Shown: positions 4,845 through 64,000 of the stretch, in pieces
Layout of the letters: each line of letters begins with the position of its first letter
Position numbering within the stretch: the stretch's first letter is position 1
DNA from: Tubulanus polymorphus
Taxonomy: Eukaryota > Animalia > Nemertea
Assembly (NCBI RefSeq): GCF_964204645.1
Contig: NC_134030.1
Coordinates: 14,756,110-14,820,109 of the forward strand
Direction: 5' to 3'
DNA: 64,000 nt
Made by a program: the position numbers and the translations under genes
The notes under the pieces: generated by a model
The model's database searches: none
The model's input: the letters and a program-made list of their open reading frames with translations, nothing else
What the model was told of the DNA's origin: nothing

Positions 4845-5337
4845 TATAAACCACTGCAGACTAAAATCAGCATAAATAGAATGCGTCCATTTGTAATGTC
4901 CTCGTCCAACGAATAACGCAACACATGAAAATCGACGTAACTGAATTCATGGTGTATGATATCTCTTTAATGAGGTCTCAAAGACGATAACGACGATTCA
5001 CTACAAAAATACAACAAGTCAAACTTATTTCAAAACATGACAAAATTTGAATACAATAGTTATTAATTCTTCGTGAAATAACGACTTAGAATAACATTAT
5101 ATTAATGTAAGGATTTTCTTACCGAATTTATGCCCACATGAAATGTGTCTATATCATGACCACACACAAGCTAAACTAGCTCAGAACCTCACCTACACAG
5201 ATATATAAGCTAACCTATACAAAAACTGACCAAGTGTATCCTTATCCTAACAAAATCAGTGAAGCTTACGTAAATACCATACACACAAAACAGGTAGAAT
5301 CACCAGTCCTTAATAAAAGAAACTACACAACCTAACA
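4845..5337 (-). repeat. 3' LTR (493 bp)
   Basis: Near-identical to 11097-11592; I count about 8 substitutions and one 3-bp indel. Confidence 0.95.
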
Positions 5338-5352
5338 TACCCGGCCCCTATA
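5338..5352 (-). other. Polypurine tract
   Basis: Minus strand reads tataggggccgggta immediately before the TGTTAGG start of the 3' LTR, a BEL-type PPT. Confidence 0.8.
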
Positions 5353-5485
5353 TCGGGCACCGAAATAATACTAAACTAATAATAATACTATACTAATGAG
5401 ATATACAATTACAGTAGCATATTAAAGATTATGAATCAAGAAAACTGTTTTACTTGTATTACATCTAACAACCTTACATATTATC

Positions 5486-6805
5486 TCATGTATCAATATC
5501 CATCTCCAAAATGGAAGATAACTTGTGTATCGGTCTTCTCAACACATTACTTTTAGTTTTCACATCCAAGAATCGAACATGCCCATGCGCATCAGGAAAC
5601 GTTTTTACCACTCTGCCAAGTAACCAAGACCCTCGAATGTTGCTTTCAATTAATATAACTATGTCTCCGACGGCTACATTAGTACGCTGTTTACACCATT
5701 TTGCACGACGTTGCACGACGTTTTCAGAGGTGAGCACTGGTGGCAAAGAATCAGCAGAAGGGAACAACAAAACGTCATTAGGTGTAAGAGGACGTAACTC
5801 ACATGGATCATTTGAAGTTCGAGTCAGTGGTAGTGAATTCAAAATGTTCTCCACTTCGCACAATAACGTGCACAAACCTTCGTCATCTAAGTGGAACACT
5901 TGCTCCTTTAGTAAAGAATACATCACTTTTCGCACGGATCTAATGAGCCTTTCCCAAGAACTACCAAATTGAGACGAGGAGGGAGGGTTGAAACGCCAAT
6001 CAATTCCTTCTTGAGCCAATCTTTCAATCAAGATGCTGCGATTCCACTTATCTAACTCATTACGAAGTTCTTTCTCGGCCGCAACGAGATTGGTTCCATT
6101 ATCTGATCGCATTGTTTTGACCTTACCACGCCTAGCCCTAAACCGACGAATGGCATTGATGCATGAATCCATATCAAGCGACGACGCGACCTCTAGATGG
6201 ATAGCTCTACTAGACAGACATGTAAAGATTACACCATAACGTTTAACTCTTGATCTGCCACGCCTGACTTCAAAGGGACCAAAATAGTCAACCCCTGTAT
6301 GTGAAAAAGGGGGATCAGTAGAAACGCGATCTGCAGGGAGGTTCACCATCTTTTGGCTATCCAACAGACCACTATATTTGCGACAATTCACACATGAAAT
6401 GAGCATCTTCACTATCCGATTTGCGCTGATTACCCAATAATCTTCATTCAGTTTAGAAAGTATTGAATTCTTTCCAAGATGTCCAATCAAATTCACGTGA
6501 ACATGTCTGATAATCTTTTCAGCGATACAAGACTTCTTAGGTATGATAACGGGATGCTTCATATTGAACGAGACACGAGCGTTGCGAAGTCTGCCGCCAA
6601 CTCTCAATAGACCACTTCCCGAGTCGATGAACGGATCAATTTTGTACAGGGCGCTGGACTTTTTTTCTGGTTTACCGGCCTTCACCAATACCAACTCATC
6701 GTGGAAGAATTTGCTTTGTTCAGAATTGATAATGATGCTTTCTGCTTCATCCAACGTTGACTTGTCAAGCGTAATGAAGTCCTTATTCTTCAGAGACTTC
6801 CGCAA
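5486..6805 (-). pseudogene. BEL/Pao integrase region (HHCC zinc finger plus DDE core)
   Basis: GLLRVGGRL, HPVIIPK, H..GH..C..C, TGVDYFGPF, SDNGTN, WERLIRS, PLTPN, GRVVKTFPD..G.VR. Confidence 0.93.
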
Positions 6806-9360
6806 AACCCTACCTATCTCGATTTTCCGCTTAGCAGTACTTCCAGCATACTTAAGAGTTGTTGATAATCCAGTTTCTATTATCCTTTACGCTCCATAAC
6901 CTTGAACCGTAAGTAATCTCGAACTTTAAGCAACCGACCAGTGAGACGTTTGGTTTTACTCCAATCCGAACAATGGTTTAGCAAGTTATCGACTACCTTG
7001 CTGGTCGAACTGCAACCCTCCCCCACGCACGAAGACGACACCGCTTTGTTCACCTCTGGTCCATCTTCACACTGTATAGGTGTATCATGAGGCTCTCATG
7101 TTTCAAGAAACCCAGGCCATAAAACCACGTTTCACCATCACATGAGGGATCCATGCTCCTGGAGGCTATATCCACCGGATTGAGGTTTGTACTGACGAAC
7201 CTCCAAACATGCGGATTTGAGATCGCGTGAATGACCGACACGCGATTAGCGACATACGTTTTGAACTGGGTTGAATCGTTCCTTATGTAGCGCAAAACCG
7301 CCATGCTATCGGTCCAAAAAAACACGATCGTGGCTTCCAAGTTGAGCTCTCTCTTAAGCATCGCATGAGTTCGAACACTCATAGTGGCAGCAGCTAGCTC
7401 CAGACGCGGAATCGTTAATTTTTTCAATGGGGCTACTCGAGACTATCCGTATAACAACTGACAATGAGTCTCTCCTTTGTCGTTCGTTAAACGCATATAA
7501 ACTGCAACCCCGAATCCGGACTCAAGCATCACTGAAATAATGTACCTGTTCGTCTACAATTTCACCAAAATTAGCGGGCTTAATGCATCGGGATACGGAC
7601 ATTGATTCAAATCTCGGTATTCCAGCTTTCCATTGCAACCATCTTAGGTAATCGCCAGTTAGCTCAATGTCCCAGTCCATGCCATTTCTACAAACATCCT
7701 GAAGTAGAATTTTTTCAGGTAAGACGTAAGGAGATATGAGGCCAAGCGGATCAAACACTGAACTGATAACAGACAGAACGCCGCGGCGCGTAGGCGGCTT
7801 ATCCTTTATCGATACAGTAAAGCCAAAACTATCGGAATCCAACTGCCACAACACCCCTAACGCACGTTCCTGTGCTGTAGCTGTATTTGCAACTTTCAGG
7901 AATGGCATGAATTACTGACTGATTGTTGCTGACCCATCCAGTAATCCGGAAACCGCCACGCGCGCAAATAGATATTACTTGACGAACGATACGAACCCCA
8001 TCGTTTACTGAGTCAATACTCTTTAAGCAATCGTCCACGTAGAAGTTCCTTTTCCAGCATCCAGAACATCCTCATCGAAACTACTTGCGAAATCTTCTGC
8101 AGTCTGGCGTAAAGCTGTGTTTGCACAACTACCTGAACTTACGGCGCCAAGCAGGTGTACAGTCATACGGTACATCTTGGGTTCGATACTAGTATCACCA
8201 CCAGGCCACCATATAAAACGTAGATAATCTCTGTCTTTTTCAGGAACGCGAACCTGATAATACATCTCAATATCTCCCATCACGGCTATGCTACCCATAC
8301 GAAACCGTAACAACATGCCAAGTAAGTTGCTGGTAAGATCGGGACCCTTAAGCAATAGATCGTTTAATGACACACCCTTCCATTAAGCTCCACAGTCAAA
8401 GACTACTCGCAACTTGGACATCCTGGGATGATACACGCCATGATGGGGAATGTACCACACATGGCCGTCATCACGATTAAGTAAATTCTCCGGTACCAAT
8501 TCTGCGTAGCCGCGTCCTATTATGGTTGCCATGAAATTATTATAATCTGTTCTAAATTTGTCATCTTTGACGAACCTAGCTTGAAGATTTTTTCAATCTT
8601 GATGTAGCCAATTGCTTATTATCAGGCAGTTGAACATCTTGATCACGAAATGGCAAGTCGACCACGTAATGCCCTTCTTCTAGCAACATGGAGCTTTTAA
8701 CCTTCTTTGTGAACAACATATCGTCTTGCGAATATTCCTTTTTTTCATCAACGAAGCCAGACGAGAGACGGCAACCAATTTAGAAGTCATCGAAGATTCA
8801 TAACTCTTAATTCCCCAAGGAATCCAACCTAGGGAAGTACGCGTGACGTGAGGGCTCCCAACAGGCCCTGTAATACTCTCCAAAGGTGTGTATGCTTCTG
8901 TCACATCATTACCAATTAACAATTCCACCTCCGAATCAATGGAAGGCAAGACAATTTCTTGGAGATGCGACCAGCAATTCAAATCGTCTTGGGTAGGAAT
9001 GTGCTCACGTAACACAGGAATCTTATCTTTAGTATATATAACGGGGAAGTCAATGAACGATTTGGCTTCAATGTCCCCTACTTGAATTCCTTTCAAGCAG
9101 AAAGTCTCCAATGATACGACATCACCCATGGTGTTGAGTCTAAACGATTTTTTTCTACCAGTATGACGCAATTTACGCATAAGTGAATCGGAGCAAAAGG
9201 TCCATAAAAGCATATGTATTTACTACGTTCGAGCATCCCATAACACGCACAGAAACCGGTATCATCGAACACTGCATCCGTTGCTGTATCTTTGCTTTCA
9301 GCCTTAACATCTGCAACATCTGTTTTGAACCTTTGAATATGCAACACTGTAGGATGTGCC
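6806..9360 (-). pseudogene. BEL/Pao protease-RT-RNase H region, multiple frameshifts
   Basis: Fragments ELLIG..RTSLGW, WYIPHHGV, MGDIEM, VDDCLKS, LGVLW, SVFDPLG, HYFSDA, TIPRLEL, NPVDIASR. Confidence 0.92.
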
Positions 9361-11081
9361 TTATGACATTTGTTGCACACCGCTCGATTCGAACACACGA
9401 CTTATATGACCAGGTTGCAAGCACCCAAAACATAGCAACTGCTTACGGATGAAATCCTTTCGCTCTCTAAATGGCTTACTTTCAAAGCTACGACAAGATC
9501 GCAAACGATGGTTAACCTTTTTACAAAATATACAAATTTCAACTGATTTCGCGTTATCAACGTTGCCTGAAACTGGTGTAGTATCCGAATTTTCCACGAT
9601 AGAAACGCTCGCGTGACTTAACCAGCTTTTACGCGCGGGAGACGAAATACTCTGAGCAGATGACTTTTTTCGATTGTTGAATAGTGTTTCTCTTCCGTAG
9701 ATCACATCATTAGCTTTTCTAGCTTCTCTACGCACGAAATTTACCAAGTCCTTGAAACATACTAACAACTTCTGATCTCTCTTTTGTACGACTATATTAC
9801 GCCACTTATCATGCATTGAAAACGGAAGCTTCCCCACCAAATGCTTAATATTTTCTGGATACTCTAAAACCTTCAACGCATCGCTGTAATTCACTGCATT
9901 CTCACATTCTGAGAGTAGAATCGCAAATTCATCCAACGATTTCGGTTTATCCAATCGTATTTCGTGCCAACTAAACGCCTTTTGTATGAAAGCATGCGCT
10001 ACAGTGTGCGGGTCACCATAACGTTCCTTTAATTCACGCATGGCCGCTTCATATCCTTTCCATATATCGCTTTCGAGATAACTGTAACCAGTAACAATAC
10101 GGTACGCTTTACCTTGGGTAAACTGCTCCAAGTAACTCATCCGTTCATCGTAATCCGCGCAAACTTGTTCAACTTTCATACGAAACTGCCTCATAAAACG
10201 ATTGTACTCAAGGGGGTCGCCTGCGAACCTTTTAATGTCAACGACTGCTTTCTTGAGCTGATTTATCATCATAGCAACAGGATCAATGCCGACAGTTCCC
10301 CCTTGAAATGAACGACCGACATCATTATTTTCTTGACTCTTTTCGCATGAACGAATAACATTACTATTTCTGTGATAATCGACATTTGGTACGAACGGTG
10401 GTGAAAACGGATTAAGTTTTGGAGTATCATCTTCGGGATATGCGATAGAATCAATAGCTTTAGAACATGCACCGGCCACACGTAATTCGGTTTCTAATTT
10501 TAAGGCTTCTTCTTGCTTCAGACGAAACATGCTTTCCTCTATTTGTTGTTCTTTTTTGAGCGCCTCTTGGCGTTCCTGTATCTCCGCTACCCTCTGCGCT
10601 TCTTTAATTCTCGCTGATATAATCGAACTAGACCGACTCGACACTGAACTTCTGCAAGAACGACTTTCTCCTTTTGCACTCAGCTTACTGACTTCCATAG
10701 CACCTCTCTCCTTAAACCATAGTTCAATTAACAACTTAAACGCACGCATATACTTATCACGTTCATCGTATGACGACTGAAAATATTTTTCCTTTTCTCT
10801 GTCATCGAAAATACCACATAACTCGTCATGCTAGACAAAGAACGATTCATACAACGTCAACCACTCTTTGTAATCCTCGCACACATTTGCAACTGCCACA
10901 TTTTCGTCCTGGATTTTGATACGCAGAAAATCACTTTTTGACGCAGTTCATCATAAACCGAAGTATTACGTTTTTTCAGCGAACTTATTTGAAATTCTCG
11001 TCCCTTTTCGGTAAATGTCTTCTTACTAGCACCACGACCCATTTGGATACCATCAGACAATCTTTCTTCACTCTCATCCAT
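9361..11081 (-). pseudogene. BEL/Pao gag (DUF1759-like plus CCHC knuckles), broken near its 5' end
   Basis: TEKGREFQ N-terminus, F.GDPLEY..F, LKERYG, V.KLP, CIFCKKVNHRLRSC, LCFGCLQPGH. Confidence 0.9.
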
Positions 11082-11096
11082 GGCATTCGTGAATGA

Positions 11097-11592
11097 TATA
11101 AACCACTGCAGACTAAAATCAGCATTAATAGAATGCGTCCATTTGTAATGTCCTCATCCAACGAATAACGCAACACATGAAAATCGACGTAACTGAATTC
11201 ATGGTGTATGATATCTCTTTAATGAGGACTCAAAGACGACGATAACGACGATTCACTACAAAAATACAACAAGTCAAACTTATTTCAAAACATGACAAAA
11301 TTTGAATACAGTAATTAATAATTCTTCGTGAAATAACAACTTAGAATAACATTATATTAATGTAAGGATTTTCTTACCGAATTTATGCCCACATGAAATG
11401 TGTCTATATCATGACCACACACAAGCTAAACTAGCACAGAACCTCACCTACACAGATATATAAGCTAACCTATACAAAAACTGACCAAGTGTATCCTTAT
11501 CCTAACAAAATCAGTGAAGCTTACGTAAATACCATACACACAAAACAGGTAGAATCACCAGTCCTTAATAAAAGAAACTACACAACCTAACA
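11097..11592 (-). repeat. 5' LTR (496 bp)
   Basis: Direct repeat of 4845-5337. Confidence 0.95.
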
Positions 11593-12162: not shown

Positions 12163-14412
12163 ATGAATGGGATAAAAAAAAGGCAAAAGCTTGAGGAAAT
12201 TGTTCAAAATATAAGGTTTGCTTTTGAAAATCAATGCAACCGGAATCCTGTAAAAAGCATTAATGAAGTAGTGGATAATGATGACTGCTCGAGTGAAAAT
12301 CGTGTTGATGATGGACTGAATTCAGAAAGCGACCATGAATATTTTGTTCAAAGTGAAAAAAATGGTTCTAATGATTGGGAACAGTATTTTTATGATGGTG
12401 ATGATGGTGATAGCGACGATGGCAGAGATAATTACAGTGGGGATGATGGTGACAATGGCGGTGATGATGAAAGTGGTGATGATGATAATGAAGATGATGA
12501 CGATGAGGATAACGACGGCGACGGCAACAACAATGACGATTATGGTGACAATGGCAGAGATCATGGCGGTGATGATGAAAGTGATGATGATGATGATGAT
12601 GACGACGATGACAACAACGATGACGATGGCAGAGATCATGGCGGTGATGATGAAAGTGGTGATGATGATCATGGAGATGGGGGTGATGATAATTATGGTG
12701 ACGATGGCAGAGATCATGGCGATGATGATGAAAGTGATGATGATGATTATGAAGATGGTGATGATGATAATGATAATGGTGATGACGATGACGGTGACGA
12801 CGATGATGATGGTGACGATGACAGAGATCATGGCGGTGATGATGAAAGTTGGTGATCATGATCATGGAGATAGTGGTGATGATAATTATGGTGACGATGG
12901 CAGAGATCATGGCGATGATGATTATGAAGATGGTGATGATGATAATGATAATGATGATGACAGTGACGATGATGGTGACGATGACAGAGATCATGGCGGT
13001 GATGATGAAAGTGGTGATCATGATCATGGAGATAGTTGTGATGATGAGCAAGAAAACGCCGAGGATAATGATGACGAAGATGATTCGAAATGAAATACAA
13101 ATATTTGTGCCATGGGAAGAGTACAAGAATATCCGCCCAGTAACTAGCGGCAACAACCATCGACTCTTGAATAATTGGTCTGATACCATCTACAACAATT
13201 TTCGCAAACACTTTCATGGTTGTGTTCTCCGTTTCACCTATAACCGGGTTATAAAGACTAACAGCAGTCGGCAGGAATCAGAGAACTTCTTTTCTGGGAG
13301 AGCATATTGTAAAGGAGACAAATACTCAGCTCAATTTCAATTCAAAATAAAAAACGAACCTCCACCCAATAAACCGGTTTGTTTCAAGTGACGAGGACTG
13401 GAATCATCGAGCATACCTCTAATGAACATAACAAGAGACAAATTCGTGGTAAAAGAAGAGAAGAGATAGCTAAGAGAGTTTCAGTTGAAGGCGCATTGAA
13501 TGTTTTCAACAAAGAACTAGTGAAGACGCCTACGACCGAACTCGAAAGTGGCAATTGGACACAGCCACAAACCTTAAAAGTGTTGAGAAAAGTTGCCTCT
13601 GAAGCACTGGAGAAAGAGATGTATCACAGGGTCTATATTCGTGATTTGATGCTTCTCTGGGAAGCTTTCACTGCGAATGGGGATAGCTATTTTATAAATC
13701 TAGGAGTCTGTCCGTTTAACATCATATGCATGGCTGACGAGCAGATACGTCTGATCAACGAAAGTAACTTCTGTTTGCACTTCAACTCCCCCGGTTCAAC
13801 CATCAATGCAATCAAAGGACAAAAACGACCTTATCTTTACTCGCTTGTTCTCAATAAACCCAACATTTGCAAAATATGACTTCAATTACGCATTAATACA
13901 AAGCATACTGATTGCTTTCAACCGTATGAGTGTGAAAGGGTAAATAAACCTTACCTGGAAAAATCATCCGAGGAACGTCAAGTCAAAGTGCAATGCAACA
14001 TATAACAATCGTTCACCTGTGTTGTGCTCATATGCTTAAGCTTTATTCAGTCAACATGGTCGAAATATTAGGGAAGAAAAAGCTGAAGAAATTTTGTATG
14101 TTTGTCTTTGCCTTGTTCCAGAATGTGACCTCCCTGAAGGCAGCGGCAAATATTTTCAAAAAATTTGTTATCGTCTGTATGACTGAATTCAAGTCGGCTC
14201 CTGTTGAGAAAAGTATAGCCGATATTGCCAAATTTGTCGAAAAAAATAATGTCAAGATCCCTAAAAAAGAACAGGCAGCCAAAGTTGAGATGGATTTCTT
14301 CATTGAAGATAGGACGACGATAAAAAATGCCTCTCCATATTTCAGATATTTCACAGATATGAAATCTGAAGTAAATATCTCAAATGGCGGATGTGAACTA
14401 AACAAACTATAT
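12163..14412 (+). pseudogene. Mutator-superfamily (NOF/Foldback-like) transposase relic with Asp-rich N-terminus
   Basis: Successive frames give W..I...F...C...F, FSGRAYC, G..EH..RQIRG..R, LHFNSPGS (degenerate DATGS), YLYSL and IVHLCCAHMLK (Mutator CxxH); truncated by a piggyBac fragment. Confidence 0.65.
12392..13085 (+). repeat. GAT/GAC-rich coding minisatellite with higher-order units (DGRDHGGDDESGD)
   Basis: gatggcagagatcatggcggtgatgatgaaagt recurs several times; an extra T near 12850 shifts the frame. Confidence 0.9.
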
Positions 14413-33104: not shown

Positions 33105-34750
33105 TGTGATTTATAATTTGTTATTCGAATCTTATTAAAATTTAAAGTATTCTCTTTTTGAAAAGAAAATATTAGATTTTGAAAAAAAATAAAATAGAAA
33201 TAATGGTTAGTTGAAGTTATGTAATTTTTATTATATTTTATTTGAATTCTATCTAATATCTTCTTTGAAAAGAAATATTAGAATATGATTTTAATATCTC
33301 ACTACTTTTGTCTATGTATAGGAGCAGTTACTATAACTATCCAGTCATTTCGGATCCTCGATATTAAATTCCTCAAACTGAAAATTAACTTCAACGTATT
33401 GTTCATTATTTGGATCATTGTTCCATAATTCAATAAATTTCTTTGCTTTATCTAACTGATCTAAATATAATTTCATATCTAGTTTGTTAGACTTAATTAT
33501 ATTTTCTTTCTGTTCTAGTAGTCTTAGATTCTTCAAATTCCAAATTAACTTCTGATTGTATTCATCATTCATGTTAAATTTCGATGTTGGTAAAATATGA
33601 TCTATATGAAAATATTCACCACGATTATTCATATTCATTTTATCATCGAACTGATATAAAATCCATGATTTAAAAAATTTATCTGAACAATCCAATAAAT
33701 TTGTAAGTGAAACTGAGTGATTATCTTTACTGAATAACGTGATAAGACTACGCAATAAATCTCGAGGGACGAATGAAATATGAGTCCCACAATCACAAGT
33801 TCGAAAAAGGTTTTGAAATATCGAAACTATAAAGAATTTATTAAAAACTCGAATTTTCGGTTTTATCCTAAAAACCTTTCTCAAGAGTGACTAAAATTAT
33901 GAAATTTCACAGTATATTTACCAGTAAGAACGACACACACTATTGCACATGAAAACTAGGTAATATTAACCAGAGAGGAAATGTATAGGGATAATAAACT
34001 GTTGTCCCTATACATTTCCTCTGTTATTATACACTTTAACATGTTCTGGATTATTTGCCCGAAATTTTTTCATATGTTCTGGGTTATTTTTATAATATTG
34101 TTTATTATATAGTTTAATTACAAGTTTTACAAATATTTCGTAAACCATCTTTGTAAAACTTATGTTTATAATATTCTGAAGATTGTTTACTTAATTCACA
34201 TTTTGAACATATTTTATAGTATATATTAACAACAATTATTATTGTTTATATTTATAGTTTGTGATTGTTCCTCCATTTATTATAGATATTTTTATTAAAA
34301 TTGATTTTCATATTTACTCGTAAATTACTCGTTACTTTTTAGTTGTCCATTTATTTCACTTTTCATATTAAAAAATCTAAATTGTTTTATTCACACTTTA
34401 GTCACACTTTTACTATTAAAATTGGTTACTGAATGATTGATTACATGTATCGCATTTATATATTTCTTTTACATTCTTTAATTCTTCTTATTTAGTGTGT
34501 AATATATCATCTATTCTAATTTCAATTTATTCTCTAAGTGAGATTTAGTTCTATTATGTCTTGCTTTTTGAGATTTATCTATATTGATTTTACATGTTGG
34601 ACTGTAGTACTTCTTATTTGCTTCCATTTTGATATCAAATTTTTTATTAAAATTGATTTTTGAAGTTATTCATATATAAAATTTTCATTTATATATGTTA
34701 TTCATTTATATGTTATTCATATATATGGAATTATTAGAGTAATTGTATAT
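33105..34750 (-). mobile_element. Polinton-like/viral fragment A: decayed zinc-finger gene start plus HNH endonuclease gene
   Basis: Very AT-rich; 34627 down to about 34425 is closely similar in nucleotide sequence to 62059-62260. Confidence 0.8.
33345..34276 (-). pseudogene. Phage/NCLDV-type HNH endonuclease with N-terminal C4 zinc finger, interrupted by an insert at about 33760-34030
   Basis: KICSKCELSK...KDGLRNICKTC, then LLDCS..F..W...QF...M.MNNRGEYFHIDHILP..KF...NLRLLEQKENIIKSNK. Confidence 0.8.
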
Positions 34751-35433
34751 ATAAGGGTTCAGATCAGAGGTTGAAGGGGCGAGTGAGTAAAAAATGAAAA
34801 ATAAATTGGAGCGTGCGAGAATTTTTTTTTAAAATTTTTTACTCGCCCCCATTTTTCATTTTTTATATCAATTACGAATATCCGTTCCTGAATTTCAACC
34901 ACAGACAGGTTACTGACGGGGTAGGCTCGTATACAACTGCTCGGAATGGCTCTTAGCTCTATACTATGCATTGTTCATGGTACGCACAGATCGGGAAGAT
35001 CAGGGTTTTTCCCTGCAGGAATTTGAAACTATCTTATTGTCACCTGTTTCTTTTCTATCCATTTAATCAACAATAACACTGTTATAACATGTAACTCTCA
35101 ACGTTTATCATGAGAATTTCTCCATACCCTTGCTGCCACCTCGACAATCTAGGGGTATTTGTGGCATCACACTAGTTCATACTCATTGCAAAGGTGTACT
35201 CCATGATATGTTCTTTGATTGAGACGAGATTCAACGTCTTTAGCTTTTCTATATACATTGACCAGGTGTCAGGGCAATAGACCCTGAGATGGTTAAGCAG
35301 CGGTGCTGAATAATGCTTTTGTCAGATTGTCAAGTATTCCAGTACCACTTGCATAGTTGGTGATGTCCCTGACCTGATACCATACTGTATATTTACAATA
35401 TCTGATACAATTTCAAATTTTATTTTTAATCAG

Positions 35434-40037: not shown

Positions 40038-42525
40038 TTAAACAAAAATATATTTTGTAATTGGTTTTTTGACGCCTTATAAAACGTTACCATTATGAAA
40101 CCTAAACAATGCTAACCATTCAGCGTCATTTTACAAATGACAGCCGTAAATCGATGTGCAAAACGTCACAGGTTTATGTGTACACAAACAAGCTATCTGG
40201 CAAAATATTATTGACATAGATGTAGAATGGCTTCCTGTGATTATATAATGACCTATATTTGAACGTCGAAATGTTATATTGCATTGAATATCATTAGAAG
40301 ACGTATTGTAATAGTAAAGGATGTATGATTATATCAGAAGCGGCAGGCATAATTAGAAATGATAAGTAAATCGAATTATTCGGTTAAATGGCGGATGTAT
40401 ACACGATGCGGAAGTCTGATATAAAAGTCAGACCCTGACGTGGGCATGCCGGTGGAATGACGAAGCTATCTACGATGTGTGTAGGGCCGGCGTGAATTTC
40501 ATCAGCGGCTACAAGCAGTCAATATGAAAATGTGTAAACATATAATTTCAATATTCAATCGTTTGTGAAAATATGTTTGATATTAGGAGTATGCAAGTTT
40601 CGTGAGATTAGCAATTTATAATAGCATAGCTGTCATATACGGCTCCGTGTCCTCTGATGGCATGTGTATTAGGTGACAATTCAATTCCTTATTGATCCTT
40701 ATTACATTGAAATTCCGGGATAAAATTCCCAAATTCAATAAATACAAATTTTAAAATAAATTAATACAACATACATGACACAAGGGTAATTCATACAGAA
40801 CAACATAAGCATGTTATTTTAAATGACAATGTCTACTTCAACCCACCCAGACTCAAGACTCTAGGATATCGAGTGACAGCCAAACCCGTGGCCCGGGACC
40901 GGGCCGGCTGGCTAGGCCACACGATATGCTCGAAGTCATGATGAAGCAGACATCAGAAGAGCTCTTTCTTCATCCATGGAGGCAATGAAGTTGCAGACCA
41001 GCTTAGAGGCATAAGTAAATGAAGTCGGTCGCAAGTTCGCGATCAATTATTGAGAATTTTCAATAAAAAAATTTAAACCACTACTAGAGTCGAAGACCTG
41101 TATCATCTACCCAATCGCCAAATCTCATCATTCCCCAAATTTCTTAAAACTTCGATTTCAAATTTGCAATTCCACATTAGCTTAGCCCAGAAATTCTTTA
41201 TTTTTTTCCCAGGCATCAAATAATTTTCTAAAATTAATTTTCTTGTTTTTTATGGTGCGCAAAGTTGAAAGCCCTGGGTTTCATATTTTTTGAGAAATTT
41301 ACCAAAAAGTTTCTAAAATTCGATTTATTTGAGCACGTTTTTTTATAAAGAATCGTTAACTGTCCAAAATAACACATGTGAAATTTCGATGCTTGGTTCG
41401 GTAGTTATTGTCTTTCAAAGATGAAACCCCTCAAAATCTTGGTTCTATAAAATTTGTGTTGACCCAGTTTTGACTTCCAACCTGACGTCATTACATTGAA
41501 CGAGGAGGATCAGCTGGTGCGCGATATTGCACTAACAAAATGGCAGCACGATTGAATATGTCGATATTCATCATTTCTAGCGTGAATACTGATATTCAAG
41601 GTGTATGACATACCGATTTAATGTGTGCGATGTGTTCAATGATTCATCTAGTTTTGATATATCGTGCGTAAGGTAATGTTGCATCAAGATATCTGAGGAA
41701 AATGTGGTCTCAAAATGCGGAAATTTACTTCTGTGTTCGCCACACGGCTGATTCACTGATAGCATCGAATTTTTAGAGATGAGTCTGATATTTACACGAC
41801 TGGAATACCTGTTTTATCATCATTAATTGAAGTCATTTTATTAACGTTCGCATTAGCGATCCGTTTTGGAGCCTGATTATTTGTATTAGTTTGTTAAGTG
41901 GGGCACAGTGGAGCGTTTGCGTTGAAAACAGTCGTGTAATCTACATTACATTGAGTTCTATCATATTATAGCTTTATGACTGGCTGAGTGAATAAACCCG
42001 ATTGCGCAGCGGGCAACGTGCTGTTTTGACGTGCAGTAGTTTGCGTGATCCAAATTGCAAATTGATGTAGTTCGCGTGATTTTACATTCCTTTTTTTGGT
42101 TTGTTTTGTTTGGTATTGGCTTATGGACATTTTATTCATAGTTTTCAATAGTGTTGACCATACGGTCATATTAGATATGGATTGTCTTACAGCCCGGATT
42201 TTTATTGTAAGCAAGTAACTCAGGTATATAATAGTCACTAAATTGACAAGTTACTCGGGCATTTGCTCAGCCGAGCATAATTTAAGAAGGTATTTGCTCG
42301 GCCGAGTGAGTGGTTAAATTCGGCGGTCTACTCGGCCGAGTACACCGTATTATATAGCTCAGTAATTCTCAACATGGTAGATGTTATCACAACCCTCTAT
42401 TTACTAAACAGCTTAGCCGTGCAATATTATACACGGTTTTGAGTCAATCCAACGTCTCTCTATGTCTATCTGTCTTTCAGCTGCTGAGCTTCATTAATGG
42501 TTTTGTAATCTTACCCAAGCACGGA

Positions 42526-42787
42526 AATTCATTTCAAAGATTATGTCAATTGTATATTCAATGAAGGAGTTAGAAAACACAAGATGAAATGTTTAAGATC
42601 AGAAGATCATGAAATGTTTATTGAAGAGATAGAGAAGATAAGTTTGAATCCTTTCGATGGTAAAAGATATATTTTAGATGATGGAATTCATACAGTCGCT
42701 TATGGTTGCAATTTAGATGAATATCTAAAATTTAAAAGAGAAGAAACAAAAGAGAATGAGATTATGAAAAGGATTCTTACATGTTAA
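42526..42787 (+). pseudogene. Protein-primed DNA polymerase B, C-terminal fragment
   Basis: FKDYVNCIF...RSEDH...KISLNPFDGKRYILDDGIHTVAYG. Confidence 0.88.
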
Positions 42788-42816
42788 TCAAATTTCAATA
42801 AAACTATGTATAATAA

Positions 42817-43170
42817 ATGGAGAGTAAACAAGCACACAGTGAGAACAACAAATCATTCTTAAATAGAATAAAAGATACTACAAATGTAAAATCTGTAGAT
42901 TATAAATTTAGGAAGTTAACAGAATTAACAATTCATAAGAAATATTTAATTACAAATATTGATACAGTTACTAATAATTATGGAGATAAATTAGTTATTC
43001 ATTTAAAATATGAAGGGTTAAAAGGAAATAAATATAAATTCAGAACATATTTACCAGATAGATTTCATAGATTATCTAGTGAAGATCTAGAAGAATTATG
43101 TTCAGGTGATTTCTATTTCATATACAAAGGTAAGAATGAAAAGGGGCACCATGAAATAGATTTTGAATAA
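42817..43170 (+). CDS. Small protein, putative OB-fold ssDNA-binding protein
   Basis: KLTEL..KYLIT..TNNYGDKLVI..YLPDRF..FIYKGK pattern next to pPolB; the fold is inferred. Confidence 0.5.
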   Translation: MESKQAHSENNKSFLNRIKDTTNVKSVDYKFRKLTELTIHKKYLITNIDTVTNNYGDKLVIHLKYEGLKGNKYKFRTYLPDRFHRLSSEDLEELCSGDFYFIYKGKNEKGHHEIDFE

Positions 43171-43184
43171 AATACGTAAAATAA

Positions 43185-43943
43185 ATGGTAGAATTGAAAG
43201 AATATAGAATATATGTTGATTCTAGAAAACTGTTAAATTCTAAATTGCATAATTTACTAGTACAATTAGATAGAGAATTTACGAATTGCGTAGATTTGAA
43301 ATTAGTAAATGTAAGTTTATGTAATTCTTTTTATAATATAACGGATAAAACTATTGAGGATAATACTTTTTCAATTCATATTAGAAATATAAATAAATGG
43401 TTTCATCTAATTTTAAAACCAGGATTATATAATTTAGAAACATTAGCTCAAGAAATTAATCGAAGAGCACGGTTGAAAATTAGAAGAGATGATAAATTTG
43501 TAATTAGATTTATAAAAAGTGATAGCACAAATAAAGATAAAATAAAGGTATATGATGAAAGTCAAAATGCATTTATGGCAAAAAAACCATTAGCTAAATT
43601 GCTAGGAATTGCACCAGATACTGTTACAGGAAACATAGACGGTAATTCAAATATAATGCCTTTTACACACTTTGATATTTATTGCAATTTAATTGACCCT
43701 GTAAAAACTTTCGAAGCAACTAAAGATACAATTTGTAATTCTAGTATATTAAATATTATACCATTAAAAAATGTTAAACAATTTGGAACGCAAATAAATT
43801 ATAATTTAGCTGAGTGTGATTTCAAACCATGTATTCCAAAATTTAATAATTTTAAGTTAGAAATAAGAAATCATAATGGGTACTTAATTGATTTAAATAA
43901 TTTTCCTGTAATTTATGAATTATTTATAAGATGTAAAGAGTAA
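43185..43943 (+). CDS. Minor capsid (penton)-like protein
   Basis: IYVDSR, NSFYNI, PGLYN, LLG, DIYCNLI, ILNIIPL, FG..INY, LEIRNHNG.LIDLN pattern of Polinton/virophage minor capsids. Confidence 0.75.
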   Translation: MVELKEYRIYVDSRKLLNSKLHNLLVQLDREFTNCVDLKLVNVSLCNSFYNITDKTIEDNTFSIHIRNINKWFHLILKPGLYNLETLAQEINRRARLKIRRDDKFVIRFIKSDSTNKDKIKVYDESQNAFMAKKPLAKLLGIAPDTVTGNIDGNSNIMPFTHFDIYCNLIDPVKTFEATKDTICNSSILNIIPLKNVKQFGTQINYNLAECDFKPCIPKFNNFKLEIRNHNGYLIDLNNFPVIYELFIRCKE

Positions 43944-43962
43944 TTTTTTTTTATATATAAAT

Positions 43963-44319
43963 ATGAATATAACAGTAGGACCGAGTACATGTTTTGGATT
44001 TGATTTTAAATGTGAGAAAGAAATGAAATTTAACATTGATGATGTAATAACTCATATCAAAAATATAACATTTTTTAATGAATTAACATTTGAATATGAA
44101 ACAACAATAAATAAAGAAACTTCTAATGTAGAAAAGATAACCGATTTAATAAGAGAGTCTTTAGGATTTTATGAATTAGATGAAGATTTTATCATTGATG
44201 ATATTAGAAAATTAATAACTGAAATATATGATAATCATAAAAGTAGTAATGAAATAAATGTTGAAATAATTATAACTAAGTTAACTAAATATTTTGAAGA
44301 AGGTGATTTTTTTTATTAA
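43963..44319 (+). CDS. Hypothetical acidic viral protein (118 aa)
   Basis: Intact ORF packed between viral genes with the shared start motif. Confidence 0.55.
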   Translation: MNITVGPSTCFGFDFKCEKEMKFNIDDVITHIKNITFFNELTFEYETTINKETSNVEKITDLIRESLGFYELDEDFIIDDIRKLITEIYDNHKSSNEINVEIIITKLTKYFEEGDFFY

Positions 44320-44322
44320 TAA

Positions 44323-44534
44323 ATGAGTGATAATAAGTGGATAATAAATGGTTTATATAATGGAGGATTATTATCAGTTAGAACTGTTGGATATAGAATT
44401 GTATTAAAAAAGTATTTAGAATTTAGAATGATAGATTTGATATCATTGATATTTTAAAATTAACGTTAGCAGTTACTTTATCTAATTTAACAATTGATTA
44501 TTTAGAAAAATAAAAATGTATTCCTCCTATATAA
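44323..44534 (+). pseudogene. Small hydrophobic viral protein (frameshift and stop)
   Basis: MSDNKWIINGLYNGGLLSVRTVGY...DILKLTLAVTLSNLTIDYLEK...IPP. Confidence 0.55.
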
Positions 44535-44558
44535 ATGTGTAATTTTTTTACTAAATAA

Positions 44559-44984
44559 ATGGCATCTGCAATTATAACTATTATAGGGTCAGCAATTGTT
44601 AACGCCTTAGGATTTACTAGTGGTGGTTATTAATTTAAGCATATTGATAAAAATAGTTCAATAGCAGAACAAAGAAGACATAACTTAGCATTAGAAAAAT
44701 ATAATAAAGCTGCAGAAGAATATAGAGAATAGAGACAAAACTATATGGATTATATTAACAAAGAATTATATGATCAGAAAATTTCACATAGAGATTTTCA
44801 ATCAGTCGATGATGCAATGAGTTTATATAACACAGTAACAAATAAAGAAAAATTATATCTACATAAACATACAATATCAGATTATTATACCCCAAGTAAT
44901 GAACAGAAGAAATATGAAATAATTTGGATTTTAGGTAGAACAGTTATTGTATTATTTGTTGCTTATAAATTTACTAATAAGTAA
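44559..44984 (+). pseudogene. Maverick-type protein with N- and C-terminal hydrophobic segments and a coiled coil (two in-frame stops)
   Basis: MASAIITIIGSAIVNALGF..EQRRHNLALEKY..DYINKEL..DDAMSLY..SDYYTPSNEQKKYEIIWILG. Confidence 0.65.
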
Positions 44985-45000
44985 TTTCTTTTCTAAATAA

Positions 45001-45327
45001 ATGGATGATAAAGTTGATAATATTGATATTATTCCTCATGATATAAATAAAACTAAATTAAAATTATATTTGGAAAAACAAATATTAGAATTTGAAAGTG
45101 ACTTAAAGATAAAAAAGAAAAAATATTTAAAAAGTAAAATTATATATTATTTTATTATTAGTGGTTCAGTTACAATTAGTTCGGTGATAACATTTCTAGC
45201 AATATTTTCACCATTAACACCTTTAGCTATATCAATTGGTGTGTTAGGATTAAGTTCAAGTGTTTTAACCGGAATAAGTTCAAAATTAAATATAAAAAGT
45301 AATAAAGAAAAAATGATATATGATATA
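45001..45327 (+). pseudogene. Two-TM viral membrane protein, truncated at the fragment edge
   Basis: KKKYLKSK followed by two hydrophobic helices; base composition changes at about 45327. Confidence 0.55.
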
Positions 45328-54588: not shown

Positions 54589-57500
54589 AATGAAATTGAA
54601 ATGAAATTTATTTACACTCATCACCTCAACGAGAGGTATACAGAGGGACATCAAGAAGTATTTACAATTGTATAACATAACGTAAAATATAGAATAATCA
54701 ATAAAATTTGACAGAGAAAAAAGGAACACAACAGCTGTACACAGAATACATGTTGTATACACTATACAAAGAAAAATGAAGTTGTTATGTACAGCTACTT
54801 ATCTATTTACAATGGACCTGAAGGCTGAATGGTAAAGAAGTGGGTTTCTAGATCCTTAAATGACGACGAGGGTTGATAAGTTTCACAATCGTTTTACAAA
54901 AACTTCCTAATCTTCTAGATTTGTTGTTACACCTACTTAATAGGGTTCCAAATTTAGATAAGTTTAAAGAGATGGGGCCGTTCCAAACTAGTTGTCTATA
55001 CTCGTCTAAAATTGAACATTCTGCAAATAGATGATACTCGTCGAAGATAGTTATATTATGACATAAAGAGCAAGAACGAAGGCAATCGGGTAAATCAAAA
55101 AGTCTACAGTTAATTGAATCCATACAGAGATTTGATGTTCTGAAAAAACAAATAGGAAGAGCTAAATCGGCTGGCAAGTTTAGATACGTTTCAAAACAAA
55201 ATTCTTTTTTGGCAAGATTATAAAAGCAACACCTTTTATCATGATGCAGTTCGTTCCAAAAGTAATTAATGTACGCAGTTTTGAGGACACTTTGAACAGT
55301 TCTTTTAATAAAACTTTCCGATACATTTAGTTGATTGAACGCGTGAAGGAGGTTGCATTGGGAAATAATACCTTTAACTTTTAAAAACCACGGTGATTGT
55401 AAATCCCATTTCTCAGTAAGTTCAGCTAAAATCATATAAAAAATAACATTCCATTTGTTCTTCGTAATTTCGTTTTTCATTTTAGTCCAATAACAAACCA
55501 TACGACAGTGGATAGACACTGACAAAGGGAGCTCACCGACTTCACCTAATACCATAACTGATGGAGTAGAATTTTTCATCTTTAATAGATATTTGTAAAA
55601 TTTGGTTTGCACAGCATCAATCTCATCTAAGTCTTCAAACCCCCAGACTTCACATCCGTACATCATAACTGGCACGACCAAACAATTGAATAAGTGTATA
55701 AGTGTTGGGATAGACAAACTTAGTTTTCTACCTTGCCGTAACAAAGAAAACATCGCTTTCCTTCCTTTGTTTGCCGCCCACTTAATATGGCCTTTGAAAC
55801 TACCGTATGAAGAAAAAAGTACACCCAAGTAACAATATTCGGGCACTGTATCAACTGTCTGATTACATAATTTAAATAAAGGTACTGGGTTTCTCTTTCT
55901 TCCGCGACTGAATACCATAATGTTGCATTTCTTGACATTTATTGATAGTTTAAAATCAATACAATACTGAGACATGGCATCGAGACCTAATTGTAGTTGC
56001 TCTTTCGAATCCGCTAATATAATGGTGTCATCAGCATACAGGAGTAGAAACATTTTGATTTTCTGACCCAACCCCCGCACAAACTCTGAGGTAGATAGTA
56101 AGTGTAAGTTATCTAATCCTAGAAAACCGTGGTCTTGCAAATGTTTCTCAAGATCTTGTAAGAAGATTGCAAAGAGGAAAGGGGAGAGGTTCTCGCCTTG
56201 ACGAACGCCTGATTCACATGAGAATTTCGCCGAGAACCCGTTTTTTGTTTTGACACAGGATTCGGCTAAAGAATACATGTTCCTAATAATTCTAATAATT
56301 TTGCCATCTATCCCGTTATTAAGTAATTTACGCCATAGGGCTGCTCGCATTACATTGTCGAATGCTTTAGAATAATCCACAAAACACGCATAAAAACTTT
56401 GCCCTTTGCTTAGATATATGTCGATCAGGCTTCTGAGGGCAAATAGATGATCTACGGTTGAAAATTTCTTTCGGAAGGCCGCTTGGTTTACCCCTAGGAG
56501 ATCAAGTTCATCAGAAAAACTGTTCAGACGATTATTCAGAACTAGTGTAAAAAGTTTACCTAAACATGATAAAATTGTGATGCCGCGGTAATTACTTGGG
56601 TCACCTTGGTCGCCTTTGCCTTTATACAAAGGAATGATATAACCCTGAACCCATGCTGACGGAACTACTCCAGAATCTAGAATGATATTAAATATTCTGA
56701 CATATATCCTCATCATGTCATCGTTCGAGTTTTTGATGTGTTCATTCAAAATACCATCAAAACCAGGGGCTTTGTTATTCTTCAATGACTTAATTGCTAG
56801 TCGAATCTCTTCCTCTGTAATTGGACTGTTTAGGCTAGAATTATCGTCGATGTTAATCGGGCTATCAAAATCAAACTCGTTTATATCAGCTGGTAATTGG
56901 TTAAGCTTCCTAAAGTGTTCACTCAGGCGATTTGGGTCAATTTTTTTAATTGGTGCCGGTTTGCTAGGCATGACCTTTTTCCAAAATTTCCTACTATTGT
57001 GAATTCTATCCCCATCAATCTCTTGAGCTAACTTCAAATTCTGACTTTTTCTTGTTCAACAGATGCTTATACGTTTTACTGGCTAATTTGAGATGGACCT
57101 TATTGTCGGCAATCGAGTCTTTATCGAATATTTTTTTCCTAGCGTAGTAACATTCGTTATCAAACCACGGTTGCGAATTTTTCATGACTCTGCCGTTATT
57201 GTTGGCGGGTCTCCAGGATTTACCAAAAGTAGTTTTCGCGCTTGAAGCGAATATGTCACCAATTTTCTGAATACTCGTATCAATGATGTTTTGGTCAAGA
57301 GAAGAAGGATCTAAGGAAGTGAGTTCATCTAATAAAGAGTTTACCTCAAGCTGGGATATATTTTCTCTGAACTGGTCACTAGAGTCACAAACCCAAAAAG
57401 GTCTTTTCAGCGAGATATCCGAATTAGACATATCATCGTTACGTGCTTCTGTTTGATTATCTTTTTTCTTACGTAAAAACGCAGAAAATTCAACAGGACA

Positions 57501-57743
57501 GTGCCTGTCCGAAAACAAAGGGTTAAAATTACAGACTTCAAAGCTATTCCAGTAAGGTATGAAATGAGGCGACATGATCACATAATCATCCACAGCACGG
57601 TCACTGCAGGTATTCCGCCCGATATATCTATCTTTACCAGATCTACCGTTAAGGATCACGAGATTTAAATCCCGAACCAGGTCTATGAGTCTTTTCCCGA
57701 AGGGATTGATAGGAGTAGTTTCTTGAGATGACCGTTCAATTGT
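54589..57743 (-). mobile_element. 5'-truncated non-LTR retrotransposon, RTE-X-like
   Basis: AP-endonuclease C-terminal half (NGR, DYVI, SDRHCP), RT, C-terminal CxxC..H..C, AATAAA and (TTTCA)n-like tail. Confidence 0.9.
54848..57743 (-). pseudogene. LINE ORF2 (EN-RT-zinc finger) with one frameshift near 57040
   Basis: KAPGFDG, NYRGITILS, VDYSKAFD, GVRQG.NLSP.LF, LLYADD, YCYLG, YGCEVWG, GEVG, CSLC..DEYH...C. Confidence 0.93.
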
Positions 57744-57898
57744 CATCTTACAGAGTGGCACCCTCTATAATCGAAAACAGGCTAAGTATCAACCGAAACC
57801 GACATGAACCCACTTTGCCACACTGTCCTCATCCTCGCTTGCCAGGGGTCCAGTATCACTCCCGAACTCGCTTCCACCAGCCCCCTGGCCTCACGAAG

Positions 57899-61386: not shown

Positions 61387-61592
61387 AGTAATAGGGGTTT
61401 AGTAGTTCTATACCATAGGTCGAAAGGTCGAGGTCGAGAAATTTTCCAAATGTGAAAATAACAATAATTTCTACTTGAATTAGTCGCGTACACTCCTAAT
61501 TCAAGTAGAAATTATTATTATTTTAACATTTGGAAAATTTATCAACCTCAACCTCTCAACCTTTGATATAGAACAACTAAACCCCTATTACT
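61387..61592. repeat. 206-bp imperfect palindrome
   Basis: agtaataggggtttag..aataatttctacttgaattag / ctaattcaagtagaaattatt..ctaaacccctattact. Confidence 0.93.
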
Positions 61593-62022
61593 CTATCTAA
61601 TCACAAGTCTCATAATTTACAAGCCTCAACACGTTGAGTATTGCGTATTACATGTTGATTCTAGATCCATCCATCTAGGAAAACTACATTAGCCAATCAC
61701 AGTTGAGTATTACTCTAGCCAATCACAGTTGAGTATTTCCAGCCAATCACAGTTGAATATTCCCTATTACTCTATCCAATCACAGTTGAGTATTTCCAGC
61801 CAATCACAGTTGAGTATTTTACTATTATTCTAGCCAATCACAAGCCTCATAATTTACAAGTCTCAACACGTTGAGTATTCCCTATTACACGAGCCAATCA
61901 CAAGCCTCATAATTTAAAAGTCTCAACACGCAGCTGGGTTTTCCCCACTGTTGAGTAGTATAAATAGGCGGGACTCACACATGGTTGGACTCACACGTGG
62001 CGGGACGCGTTGAGAGGTAAGT
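61593..62022 (+). promoter_or_regulatory. Putative Pol II promoter: CCAAT array, kB-like site, TATA, E2F-like sites, splice donor
   Basis: 7 x CCAATCAC (61693-61901), GGGTTTTCCC 61936, TATAAATA 61959, GGCGGGA 61967 and 61999, CACGTG 61994, AG/GTAAGT 62015-62022. Confidence 0.6.
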
Positions 62023-62058
62023 GTTATGTTCAATTTTAATAAAAAATTTAGTATTAAA

Positions 62059-64000
62059 ATGGAAGCAAATAAGTACTACTGTCCAACATGTAATATCAAT
62101 ATAGATAAATCCCAAAAATCAAGACACAATAAAACTAAAACACATTTAGATAATAAATTGAAACTAGAATATAAAGATGATATATTAGAAACTAAATTAG
62201 ATGAATTAAAGAATGAAAAAGAAACATATAAATGTGATACATGTAATCAATCATTCAGTGATAAAAGATATTATAAAGAACATTTAAAATCTAAAAGTCA
62301 TATTAGAAATATGAATAATGATATTTTAGGTGAAGATTATTTTGATAATGATAATGATAAGAAACAGAAGACAATTAAAAGCATAAAAAATAAATTAAAC
62401 AATAAAAGACCATACATGGAAGATGTAAGAAATTATATTAATTCATTAGATAATAAAAAAAGATATAGAGATAACCGAAGCATTTAAAAGTGATATTGGC
62501 CCAGCAGCTATCGAGTTTAAATTTCATAAAGGAAAAACATTAGAAGAAAATAAAAAACATTTAGAAAATATGAAAAATATTATAAAAATAATTACTGATG
62601 TTGAATATCCTAAAATAAGTATTTCATCAAAAGTAAAGTTTATAAAATCTGAAGATAAACCAATATATAATATAAATTCTCATTCACAACATATTATTTC
62701 AAAACAACATATAGATGATAAATTAGATAAATGTTATAATGAAGTAAAAACTAAAATAGAAGAGAAATATTTTGAAGGATCTGGTTTAATATTTGATGAG
62801 ATAATATTTATGACTTTACATGTTTATAACACAAAATATAATAAGTTAACTAAATCAAAACCAATTGATGAAAATAATATATCATATTTATAAAGAACCA
62901 GATATTGAAGCATCGAGTTATATCAAACTACCATTTAAAACCAATGCTGTAATAAATGTACAAAATGAAGATGATAAATGTTTTCTATGGGCTATAATAA
63001 GTTGTTTACATCCAACAGAAGATATTACACATAGTTTTAGATTAACTCATTATAAACAATTTGAAAAAAATTATAAGATAGATAAGTATCCTGTTATAAT
63101 TAAAAACATCCCAAAAATAGAAAGAGATAATAATATAAAGATAAATGTATTTGATTTAATCAAATTACCAAATACAAAAGGTAACAATATAAAACATTAT
63201 ACATTAGAACCTCTATACTTATCAAAAGATTATGATTCAAATGATGTGATAGATATATTATATTATGAGAAACATTATATGTGGATTAAAAGAATTGATT
63301 TATTTTTCAAATCAGAAAATGATTTTGATAATAAAATATATGTATGTAGAAAATGTATAACTAAATTCAGAACTGAAAGGGTATTATTAAATCATAAACA
63401 ATTATGTGAAAATCATGATTATTGTAAATTAGTTTTACCAAATGAAAAAGATAAAATATTAGAATTCAAAAAATGTGATTACAAAAATAAAGTACCATTT
63501 GTAATATATGGAGATTTTGAATCATTAAATAAAGAATTAACTGATCAAGATAGAAAAGAAATATATTATAAAAGAAAGAAACAAAATTCTAATGAAAATG
63601 ATTTTTCAGATGAACCACCAAAAACAAATACTATTAAAAAGATTCATCAATCAGCTGCTGCTTTCGGGTTATATATAAAATCTGATTATCCAGAACTAAT
63701 TAAAAGTGAATATTATCATTATAGAAATGAAAATGTTATCAATCATTTTTGTGACTTATTAATTGAATATGAAATAAGATTTAGTAAATTATTGAATACA
63801 AATATAGAAATTATAATGACAGAAAAAGATAAAGAAGAATTTGTGTTTGCAGGTAAATGTTATTATTGTGAAAAGATATTTAATTATAAAGATAAAAAAG
63901 TAAGAGACCATGATCATTTGAATGGAAAGTTTAGAGGCGCTGCACATGAGAATTGTAACTTACAAGCTAAGAAAATTAACTTTGTACCAGTTATATTTCA
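62059..64000 (+). pseudogene. C2H2 zinc fingers followed by N-terminal part of protein-primed PolB (frameshifts near 62480 and 62885)
   Basis: YCPTC..H...H and YKCDTC..H...H; EGSG; SSYIKLP; VINVQNEDDKCFLWAI..LHP; HYMWIK; VPFVIYGDFES (Exo I); CYYC..VRDHDHLNGKFRGAAHENCN (endonuclease VII-like). Frame from 62892 is open to the window end. Confidence 0.9.

Follow-up and report, generated by a model that had tools for sequence, protein, structure and literature searches.

In late promoters of vaccinia virus, TAAAT(G) overlaps the start codon and the 10th base upstream is a conserved T (PMC11980589; also PMC5294985). Its intermediate promoters, which the viral RNA polymerase reads together with VITF-3, consist of an AT-rich core, a 12-bp spacer and TAAA (PMC12917281). 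Here we describe motifs of the same design at the gene starts of a Maverick/Polinton family, represented by fragments in a 64,000-nt stretch (the window, whose coordinates are used below) of the genome of the nemertean Tubulanus polymorphus (NC_134030.1, positions 14,756,110 to 14,820,109). As in vaccinia virus, TAAAT(G) lies on the start codon, a T is found at about the 10th base upstream, and a second form has an AT-rich core, a spacer of about 12 nt and TAAA(A)TG. The two systems differ in that the putative promoters described here lie on a Maverick integrated in an animal nucleus, in that no early class was recognised among them, and in that the A before TAAATG is near-fixed (39/42).

Small or integrated elements whose genes carry the promoter motif of a helper virus have been described in protists, namely mavirus/EMALE with CroV, Gezel-14T with PgV and the transpoviron of pacmanvirus (PMC10945749, 10.1101/2022.07.28.501842, PMC11788076). 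In EMALEs, the motif predicts which helper reactivates the element (PMC10945749). The reading favoured below, in which a helper virus would read the promoters, follows the logic of these systems, where promoters match the helper and predict reactivation. They differ from the present one in their protist hosts, known helpers and motifs (TCTA, AAAATTGA and TATATA), as opposed to an animal host and a pox-type motif here.

In animals, the entomopoxvirus-associated Polinton-like viruses AHEV_PLV1/2, CBEV_PLV1 and Ca_PLV1 have been proposed to be hyperparasites of poxviruses (PMC11296320). They were linked to poxviruses by co-occurrence in occlusion bodies, and the accessible parts of that paper report no rve integrase for them, while the family described here has one (in the relative L004); no promoter analysis was found in its accessible text or supplement. 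Animal Mavericks, Polintons and adintoviruses share with the present family a family B DNA polymerase (pPolB), an rve integrase, an A32-like ATPase and a penton, and are likewise multi-copy and mostly degraded (PMC8097293, PMC8502044, 10.64898/2026.06.19.733378). No gene-promoter motif is described for them in the passages found, those of two 2026 preprints included. For animal Mavericks, both the mode of expression and a dependence on giant viruses, like that of protist virophages, are still under question, and a virophage role in animals has been offered only as a possibility (PMC8097293). In the literature searched, from which most subscription papers and bioRxiv supplements were absent, we found no report of TAAATG in Polintons. 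To our knowledge, the yeast pGKL virus-like elements have neither a capsid nor an integrase. On these small linear elements there is also a pox-related initiator, TAAAAT, and they differ in encoding their own RNA polymerase (PMC12722222).

Three AT-rich islands were delimited in the window by the GC profile, at 33340-34860 (-), 42505-45324 (+) and 62030-64000 (+), with ~21-26% GC against 31-47% elsewhere. An earlier inspection of the letters (hereafter the sequence-only reading) had described nine start contexts in these islands, all of which are present as written: AATAAATG at 42817, 43185, 44323, 44559, 45001 and 34276(-), the variant TAAATATG at 43963, and T-runs ahead of 43963, 44323, 44559 and 45001 among them. 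A longer motif, AATTT(T/C)AATAAAA, which it had assigned to replication-type genes, does precede 42817, 34276(-), 34627(-) and 62059, and the spacer from AATAA to TAAA, measured from TAAA, is 12 nt at all four sites. The last two sites are not independent, since the same gene is present in two copies, at 34627(-) and at 62059 (88% identity over 233 nt; the 34627(-) copy compared with 62030-62259); both starts read (C/T)AAAATG, not TAAATG. The long form is also found, with an 11-nt spacer, before the penton gene at 43185, where it had been overlooked. In the window copy, the genes at 44323, 44559 and 34276(-) are disrupted by stops or frame changes, and that at 45001 is truncated by the end of the fragment. 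The motif is commoner at starts than chance would allow: by Fisher test, TAAATG occurs at 6/9 starts vs 23/253 other ATGs over the three fragments (p=7e-5), and at 5/6 vs 8/105 when the main fragment is taken by itself (p=6e-5).

Using a penton alignment, we retrieved seven metagenomic loci (L001-L007) with 23-45% identity to the window penton. In the window and these loci together, TAAATG was present at 42/46 curated starts but at only 75/1164 other ATGs, and ATAAATG at 39 of the 46. The curated set excludes L003:118 (within a penton frame that the end of the contig truncates), L004:7588 (an internal ATG in a stop-interrupted integrase frame, the first ATG of which is at 7141) and the start of the gene in L001 resembling a single-stranded DNA-binding protein (SSB), where the match begins at contig base 23. 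L004, an 11.3-kb partial element, is the longest relative and has the same gene order as the main island. All 15 of its unrelated genes start with TAAATG, compared with 22/387 other ATGs (p=1e-17). Identity among the 15 upstream regions is 36% at -40..-21 and 67% at -20..-1; because it rises only near the start, these regions are unrelated sequences that share a motif.

Enrichment over an AT-matched background, on which the sequence-only reading depended, was borne out with viral control loci. These came from a DNA pattern scan of viral_contigs, which yielded 120 of ~480 estimated loci, 80 of them with long flanks; the count used the 15 of L011-L090 with GC <=27%, and starts matching the search pattern were dropped. 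Under an automatic open reading frame (ORF) rule, TAAATG was found at 26/27 family starts vs 30/220 control starts, and when a T-run was also required, at 17/27 vs 6/220. In the only outgroups, the more distant Mavericks L008-L010, none of nine long-ORF starts has TAAATG, and three read TAAAATG. AT-rich DNA does produce the motif by chance, since 6-9% of other ATGs in the elements read TAAATG and the AT-rich viral controls average 14% of starts; but chance does not account for 15/15 unrelated L004 genes and a fixed T peak, and we give this explanation practically no weight. The family counts against the control loci reject it.

The sequence upstream of TAAATG takes two forms. With the T of TAAAT as the reference point, T is most frequent at -9 (36/42) and -10 (34/42), and A at -14 and -15. 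At least six T are found in -6..-13 at 27/42 starts vs 4/75 internal TAAATG sites. The long form (TT..AATAA, 11-13 nt, (T/C)AAA), which has the AT-rich core, ~12-bp spacer and TAAA of an intermediate promoter, is present at 7/46 starts vs 0/75 internal sites, and one of the seven has C for the first T. The G8R promoter as printed reads AATAA, 12 nt (counted by eye) and TAAAATG, like that at 62059 (PMC12917281). The sequence-only reading had proposed two temporal classes, with replication-type genes set apart from the rest. Two forms do exist, but the proposed division is true only in part: besides pPolB, the SSB-like gene and the likely nuclease, the penton has the long form too, and orthologues switch form. 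The SSB-like gene has the long form in the window and the T-run in L004; the penton has the long form in the window and L004 and the T-run in L001 and L005. Gene function thus does not cleanly determine which form a gene has.

A compact genome might produce such a motif as a by-product or as a translation signal, with a stop, a poly(A) signal or a splice acceptor fused to the start, and the sequence-only reading had named overlapping signals or splicing as its own alternative. The DNA is indeed ~80% AT, little space separates neighbouring genes (median gap 17.5 nt across 34 pairs), and AATAAA lies within 40 nt of 26/46 starts. However, the TAA serves as stop codon for the preceding gene in 2/34 pairs only, the AG needed for a splice acceptor is found within 12 nt of the ATG in 2/46 only, and AATAAATG is present at only 21/46 starts whereas TAAATG is present at 42. 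At the divergent pair 10981(-)/11054(+) of L004, both starts have the motif without an adjacent upstream gene on their own strand, and the motif persists even where the coding sequences of neighbouring genes overlap (gaps -23 to -80). The compaction explanations fail on these points, and we consider them very improbable.

Instead, we think it probable, with moderate confidence, that the element is a virophage-like Maverick transcribed in trans by the pox-type RNA polymerase of a helper large DNA virus, which would make it a hyperparasite kept in the genome of an animal. Each gene would carry its own postreplicative pox-type promoter, to be read by the cytoplasmic polymerase of the helper, and integrated copies would stay silent until a helper infects the cell. 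The polymerase would come from a virus of the Nucleocytoviricota; poxviruses are the best match, though the helper need not be one, and transcription would be cytoplasmic. Transcription would start inside the A run of TAAA(T), leaving an mRNA leader almost without templated bases, so that the in-frame TAA and the T at -3 would never be read. Kozak context does not explain the motif, as it favours a purine at -3, where 42/46 starts have T; a T at this position makes sense if the mRNA starts after it. As in vaccinia virus, polymerase slippage would give the mRNA a poly(A) head. T-run genes would use late-stage factors and AATAA-N11-13-TAAA genes intermediate-stage factors, in a loose two-step cascade, intermediate then late, without an early class. 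Initiation in the A run, the poly(A) head made by slippage and the loose intermediate-then-late order are carried over from vaccinia virus, and in vaccinia-infected cells foreign plasmid DNA with the G8R promoter was transcribed (PMC12722222).

The distribution of AATAAA bears on whether host RNA polymerase II (Pol II) transcribes these genes. Coding strands totalling 20.4 kb contain it 111 times, and it is not depleted: 55, 21 and 35 occurrences were observed on the coding strands vs 54.7, 18.9 and 28.4 expected from synonymous-codon shuffling. The comparison sets tended towards depletion, with 3 vs 7.4 in two distant Mavericks (P=0.03) and 1 vs 3.0 in ORFs of host retroelements (P=0.11). Lack of depletion suggests that the genes are free of selection against Pol II cleavage, which argues against transcription by host Pol II. 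GTRAG splice donors showed no consistent depletion, and TTTTTNT was depleted in L004 only (4 vs 8.7); neither was used.

Nuclear autonomy is the rival to which this result applies: host Pol II, together with a promoter-binding factor encoded by the element, would start at or just before TAAATG and produce near-leaderless mRNAs. A TBP is found among the genes of related elements (PMC8502044). Many starts read TATATAAATG, a CCAAT/TATA cassette lies ahead of pPolB in some copies, and several small L004 proteins have no assigned function. But a TATA box that abuts the ATG cannot serve the same gene, and TATAWAW is present 25-60 nt upstream at only 12/46 starts, compared with 14% of random windows. 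Besides the undepleted AATAAA, none of the 16 L004 ORFs gave a domain like that of TBP or of another such factor. We regard this explanation as unlikely, though host Pol II routes retain some probability.

Alternatively, pox-type promoters could be read by the RNA polymerase of a sister element, with no large helper virus needed, as the TAAAAT initiator of yeast virus-like elements and their polymerase, which is related to that of vaccinia virus, would suggest (PMC12722222). Only part of the gene content of the family has been seen, which leaves room for such an element. Searches with Pfam, NCBIfam, PHROGs and tblastn found no RNA polymerase domain among the ORFs of L004, a partial element, and the L004 proteins lack a DxDGD motif; moreover, two promoter forms would imply several stage factors, probably too many for a small genome. 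A sister element as the source of the polymerase therefore appears quite improbable.

Several points weigh against transcription by a helper virus. The 46 pooled starts are not independent, as L001-L005 share orthologous genes; L004 is for this reason the cleanest single test. The long-form pattern was written after the sequences had been seen and is a weak criterion in AT-rich DNA, and orthologues switch between the forms. Because the vaccinia intermediate core has no sequence consensus (PMC12917281), the match of the long form depends on spacing and one example. The control sets for AATAAA are small and of higher GC. L004 is partial, so a polymerase or factor encoded by the element is possible; a subset of copies has the CCAAT/TATA cassette before pPolB; and the reading does not account for the way in which an integrated copy would reach a cytoplasmic factory. 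The analysis turned up no helper sequence, and no poxvirus was recognised among six viral_contigs loci inspected by eye. L069, an unrelated AT-rich giant-virus locus with TFIIB, has TAAATG at 6/16 starts and A at -1 and -2 in 16/17 starts, and two other controls have TAAATG at 3/7 and 6/20 starts; the signal is thus not diagnostic of poxviruses, and a non-pox helper is possible. The pox-type promoters proposed by the sequence-only reading gain support from a motif before nearly every gene in diverged relatives, from a T peak at the vaccinia position and from the failure of the compaction explanations, but their specificity to poxviruses does not. L069 itself is a 130-kb viral contig with TFIIB, DUF5767 and two LicD genes, and may represent a non-pox type of helper.

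Transcription by a helper virus, if true, would predict that this host has a large DNA virus not yet recorded. A pox-type promoter at each gene makes helper dependence testable, and with the motif, sequence would suffice to tell lineages of Mavericks that depend on a helper from those that are autonomous. More tentatively, and with rather less confidence than for the element itself, an entire lineage of animal Mavericks may consist of endogenous virophages of undiscovered poxvirus-like viruses of aquatic invertebrates; these virophages would have copied both intermediate and late promoters. On that reading, their promoters would betray a helper that is yet to be seen, and the numerous copies in the genome might serve the animal as an inducible reserve against viruses.

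The main Maverick/Polinton fragment, 42505..45324 (+; ~22-24% GC), is present in many copies. In raw reads (run X5) of another sample bearing the same species label, its depth was ~450-1150 in most bins (lowest 113) vs 1-75 in neighbouring flank bins, a ratio that indicates a repeat of tens of copies. The fragment begins with a C-terminal piece of pPolB at 42509..42787 (+), which by tblastn matched the polymerase region of L010 (43% over 54 aa, E=1e-9), a region in which we presume to recognise motif A of the polymerase. A long-form putative promoter at 42793..42819 (+), with the core TTTCAATAA, a 12-nt spacer and TAAATG, precedes a 117-aa OB-fold protein at 42817..43170 (+; model pLDDT 80). 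Foldseek matched this protein to a phage SSB (E=1e-4), and OB-fold matches in the PDB were weak (Z up to 5.6); judged from the predicted fold, it likely binds single-stranded DNA.

The next long-form putative promoter, at 43161..43187 (+), has the core TTTTGAATAA, an 11-nt spacer and TAAATG. Its gene, at 43185..43943 (+), encodes a 252-aa penton (minor capsid protein; model pLDDT 60), for which the best Foldseek match in the PDB was the mavirus penton (E=5e-7), with minor capsid matches in BFVD; by this fold match, it is the single jelly-roll penton of a Maverick/Polinton. The genes that follow have T-run putative promoters. The first, at 43944..43965 (+), is the variant TAAATATG and precedes a 118-aa ORF (43963-44319) that gave no usable match in the Atlas search; its orthologues in L001-L004 read TAAATG. 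The others, all with TAAATG, are a late-like one at 44307..44325 (+), before a small conserved gene that is broken here, one at 44543..44561 (+), before a conserved gene of ~140 aa (44559-44984; in-frame stops in the window copy, 73% identity to the L004 orthologue), and one at 44985..45003 (+), before a two-helix membrane-type gene that is cut at ~45324.

On the minus strand, a long-form putative promoter with a 12-nt spacer and TAAATG at 34274..34306 (-) precedes a degraded gene. This gene likely ends in the HNH-type nuclease frame 33345-33890 (PHROG HNH match, E=0.002), if the ATG at 34276(-) is presumed to lead into that frame. Another, with CAAAATG, at 34625..34656 (-), belongs to a degraded second copy of the zinc-finger/pPolB start.

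The long-form putative promoter of pPolB itself, at 62030..62061 (+), has the core TTTTAATAA, a 12-nt spacer and TAAAATG. The high-copy block starts at this core: depth rises from ~300 to ~1670 at 62036, and loose ends before 62030 are seen in 918 reads. What most copies share ahead of pPolB likewise begins at the long-form core. The N-terminal part of pPolB follows at 62059..64000 (+) in three frames, with zinc fingers and an endonuclease VII-like domain, and is cut by the window end; both the N- and C-terminal pieces in the window, fragments only, match the polymerase region of L010. Directly before the promoter is the cassette at 61610-62029 (+), with seven CCAAT boxes, TATAAATA (61959), two GGCGGG and an AG/GTAAGT donor-like site (62015). 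Its depth is far below that of the gene and ~98 reads skip it, which indicates that only some copies carry it. The cassette might give host Pol II access to the polymerase gene, or it might be an insertion that has nothing to do with it. Further upstream, at 61387-61592, is a 206-bp imperfect palindrome (87%) of high copy that starts with AGT; in reads, the sequence before it is variable, and it is likely the end of the element.

The family is a Maverick/Polinton (Polintoviricetes), with capsid, protease and terminal repeats unconfirmed. This assignment is based on the gene order of L004 together with its integrase and ATPase, and on the pPolB and penton of the window. Beyond the part shared with the main island, L004 continues to a putative major capsid gene, an rve integrase (E=1.5e-10, with a chromodomain), an A32-like ATPase (Pox_A32, E=4.6e-11) and a deoxynucleoside kinase; the integrase and the ATPase are not present in the fragments of the window. 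We provisionally take L004 5877-7124 to be the major capsid protein gene from its size and position; it had 98 unnamed homologues and no Pfam or PDB sequence match. No cysteine protease was seen in the 11.3 kb of this partial element. A 442-aa protein of L004 gave no usable Atlas match, and the remaining L004 proteins were not named by NCBIfam, PHROGs or PDB profile search. Protein-based scans of viral_contigs found no relative.

The deoxynucleoside kinase of L004, at 10343-10981 (-) (Pfam dNK, E=2e-31), has the full T-run promoter form, and only three other close homologues of it were found. The outgroup Maverick contigs L008-L010 lie inside three bacterial or archaeal metagenome-assembled genomes, probably through binning contamination.

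Elsewhere in the window, a BEL/Pao-like LTR retrotransposon with DUF1759, rve and DUF5641 occupies 4845-11537, its direct repeats being ~6250 nt apart and 95-98% identical. A reverse-transcriptase ORF of 707 aa lies at 54848-57746 (-) beside a 243-aa ORF, and a GAT-rich repeat at 12163-13391 leaves several overlapping frames open.

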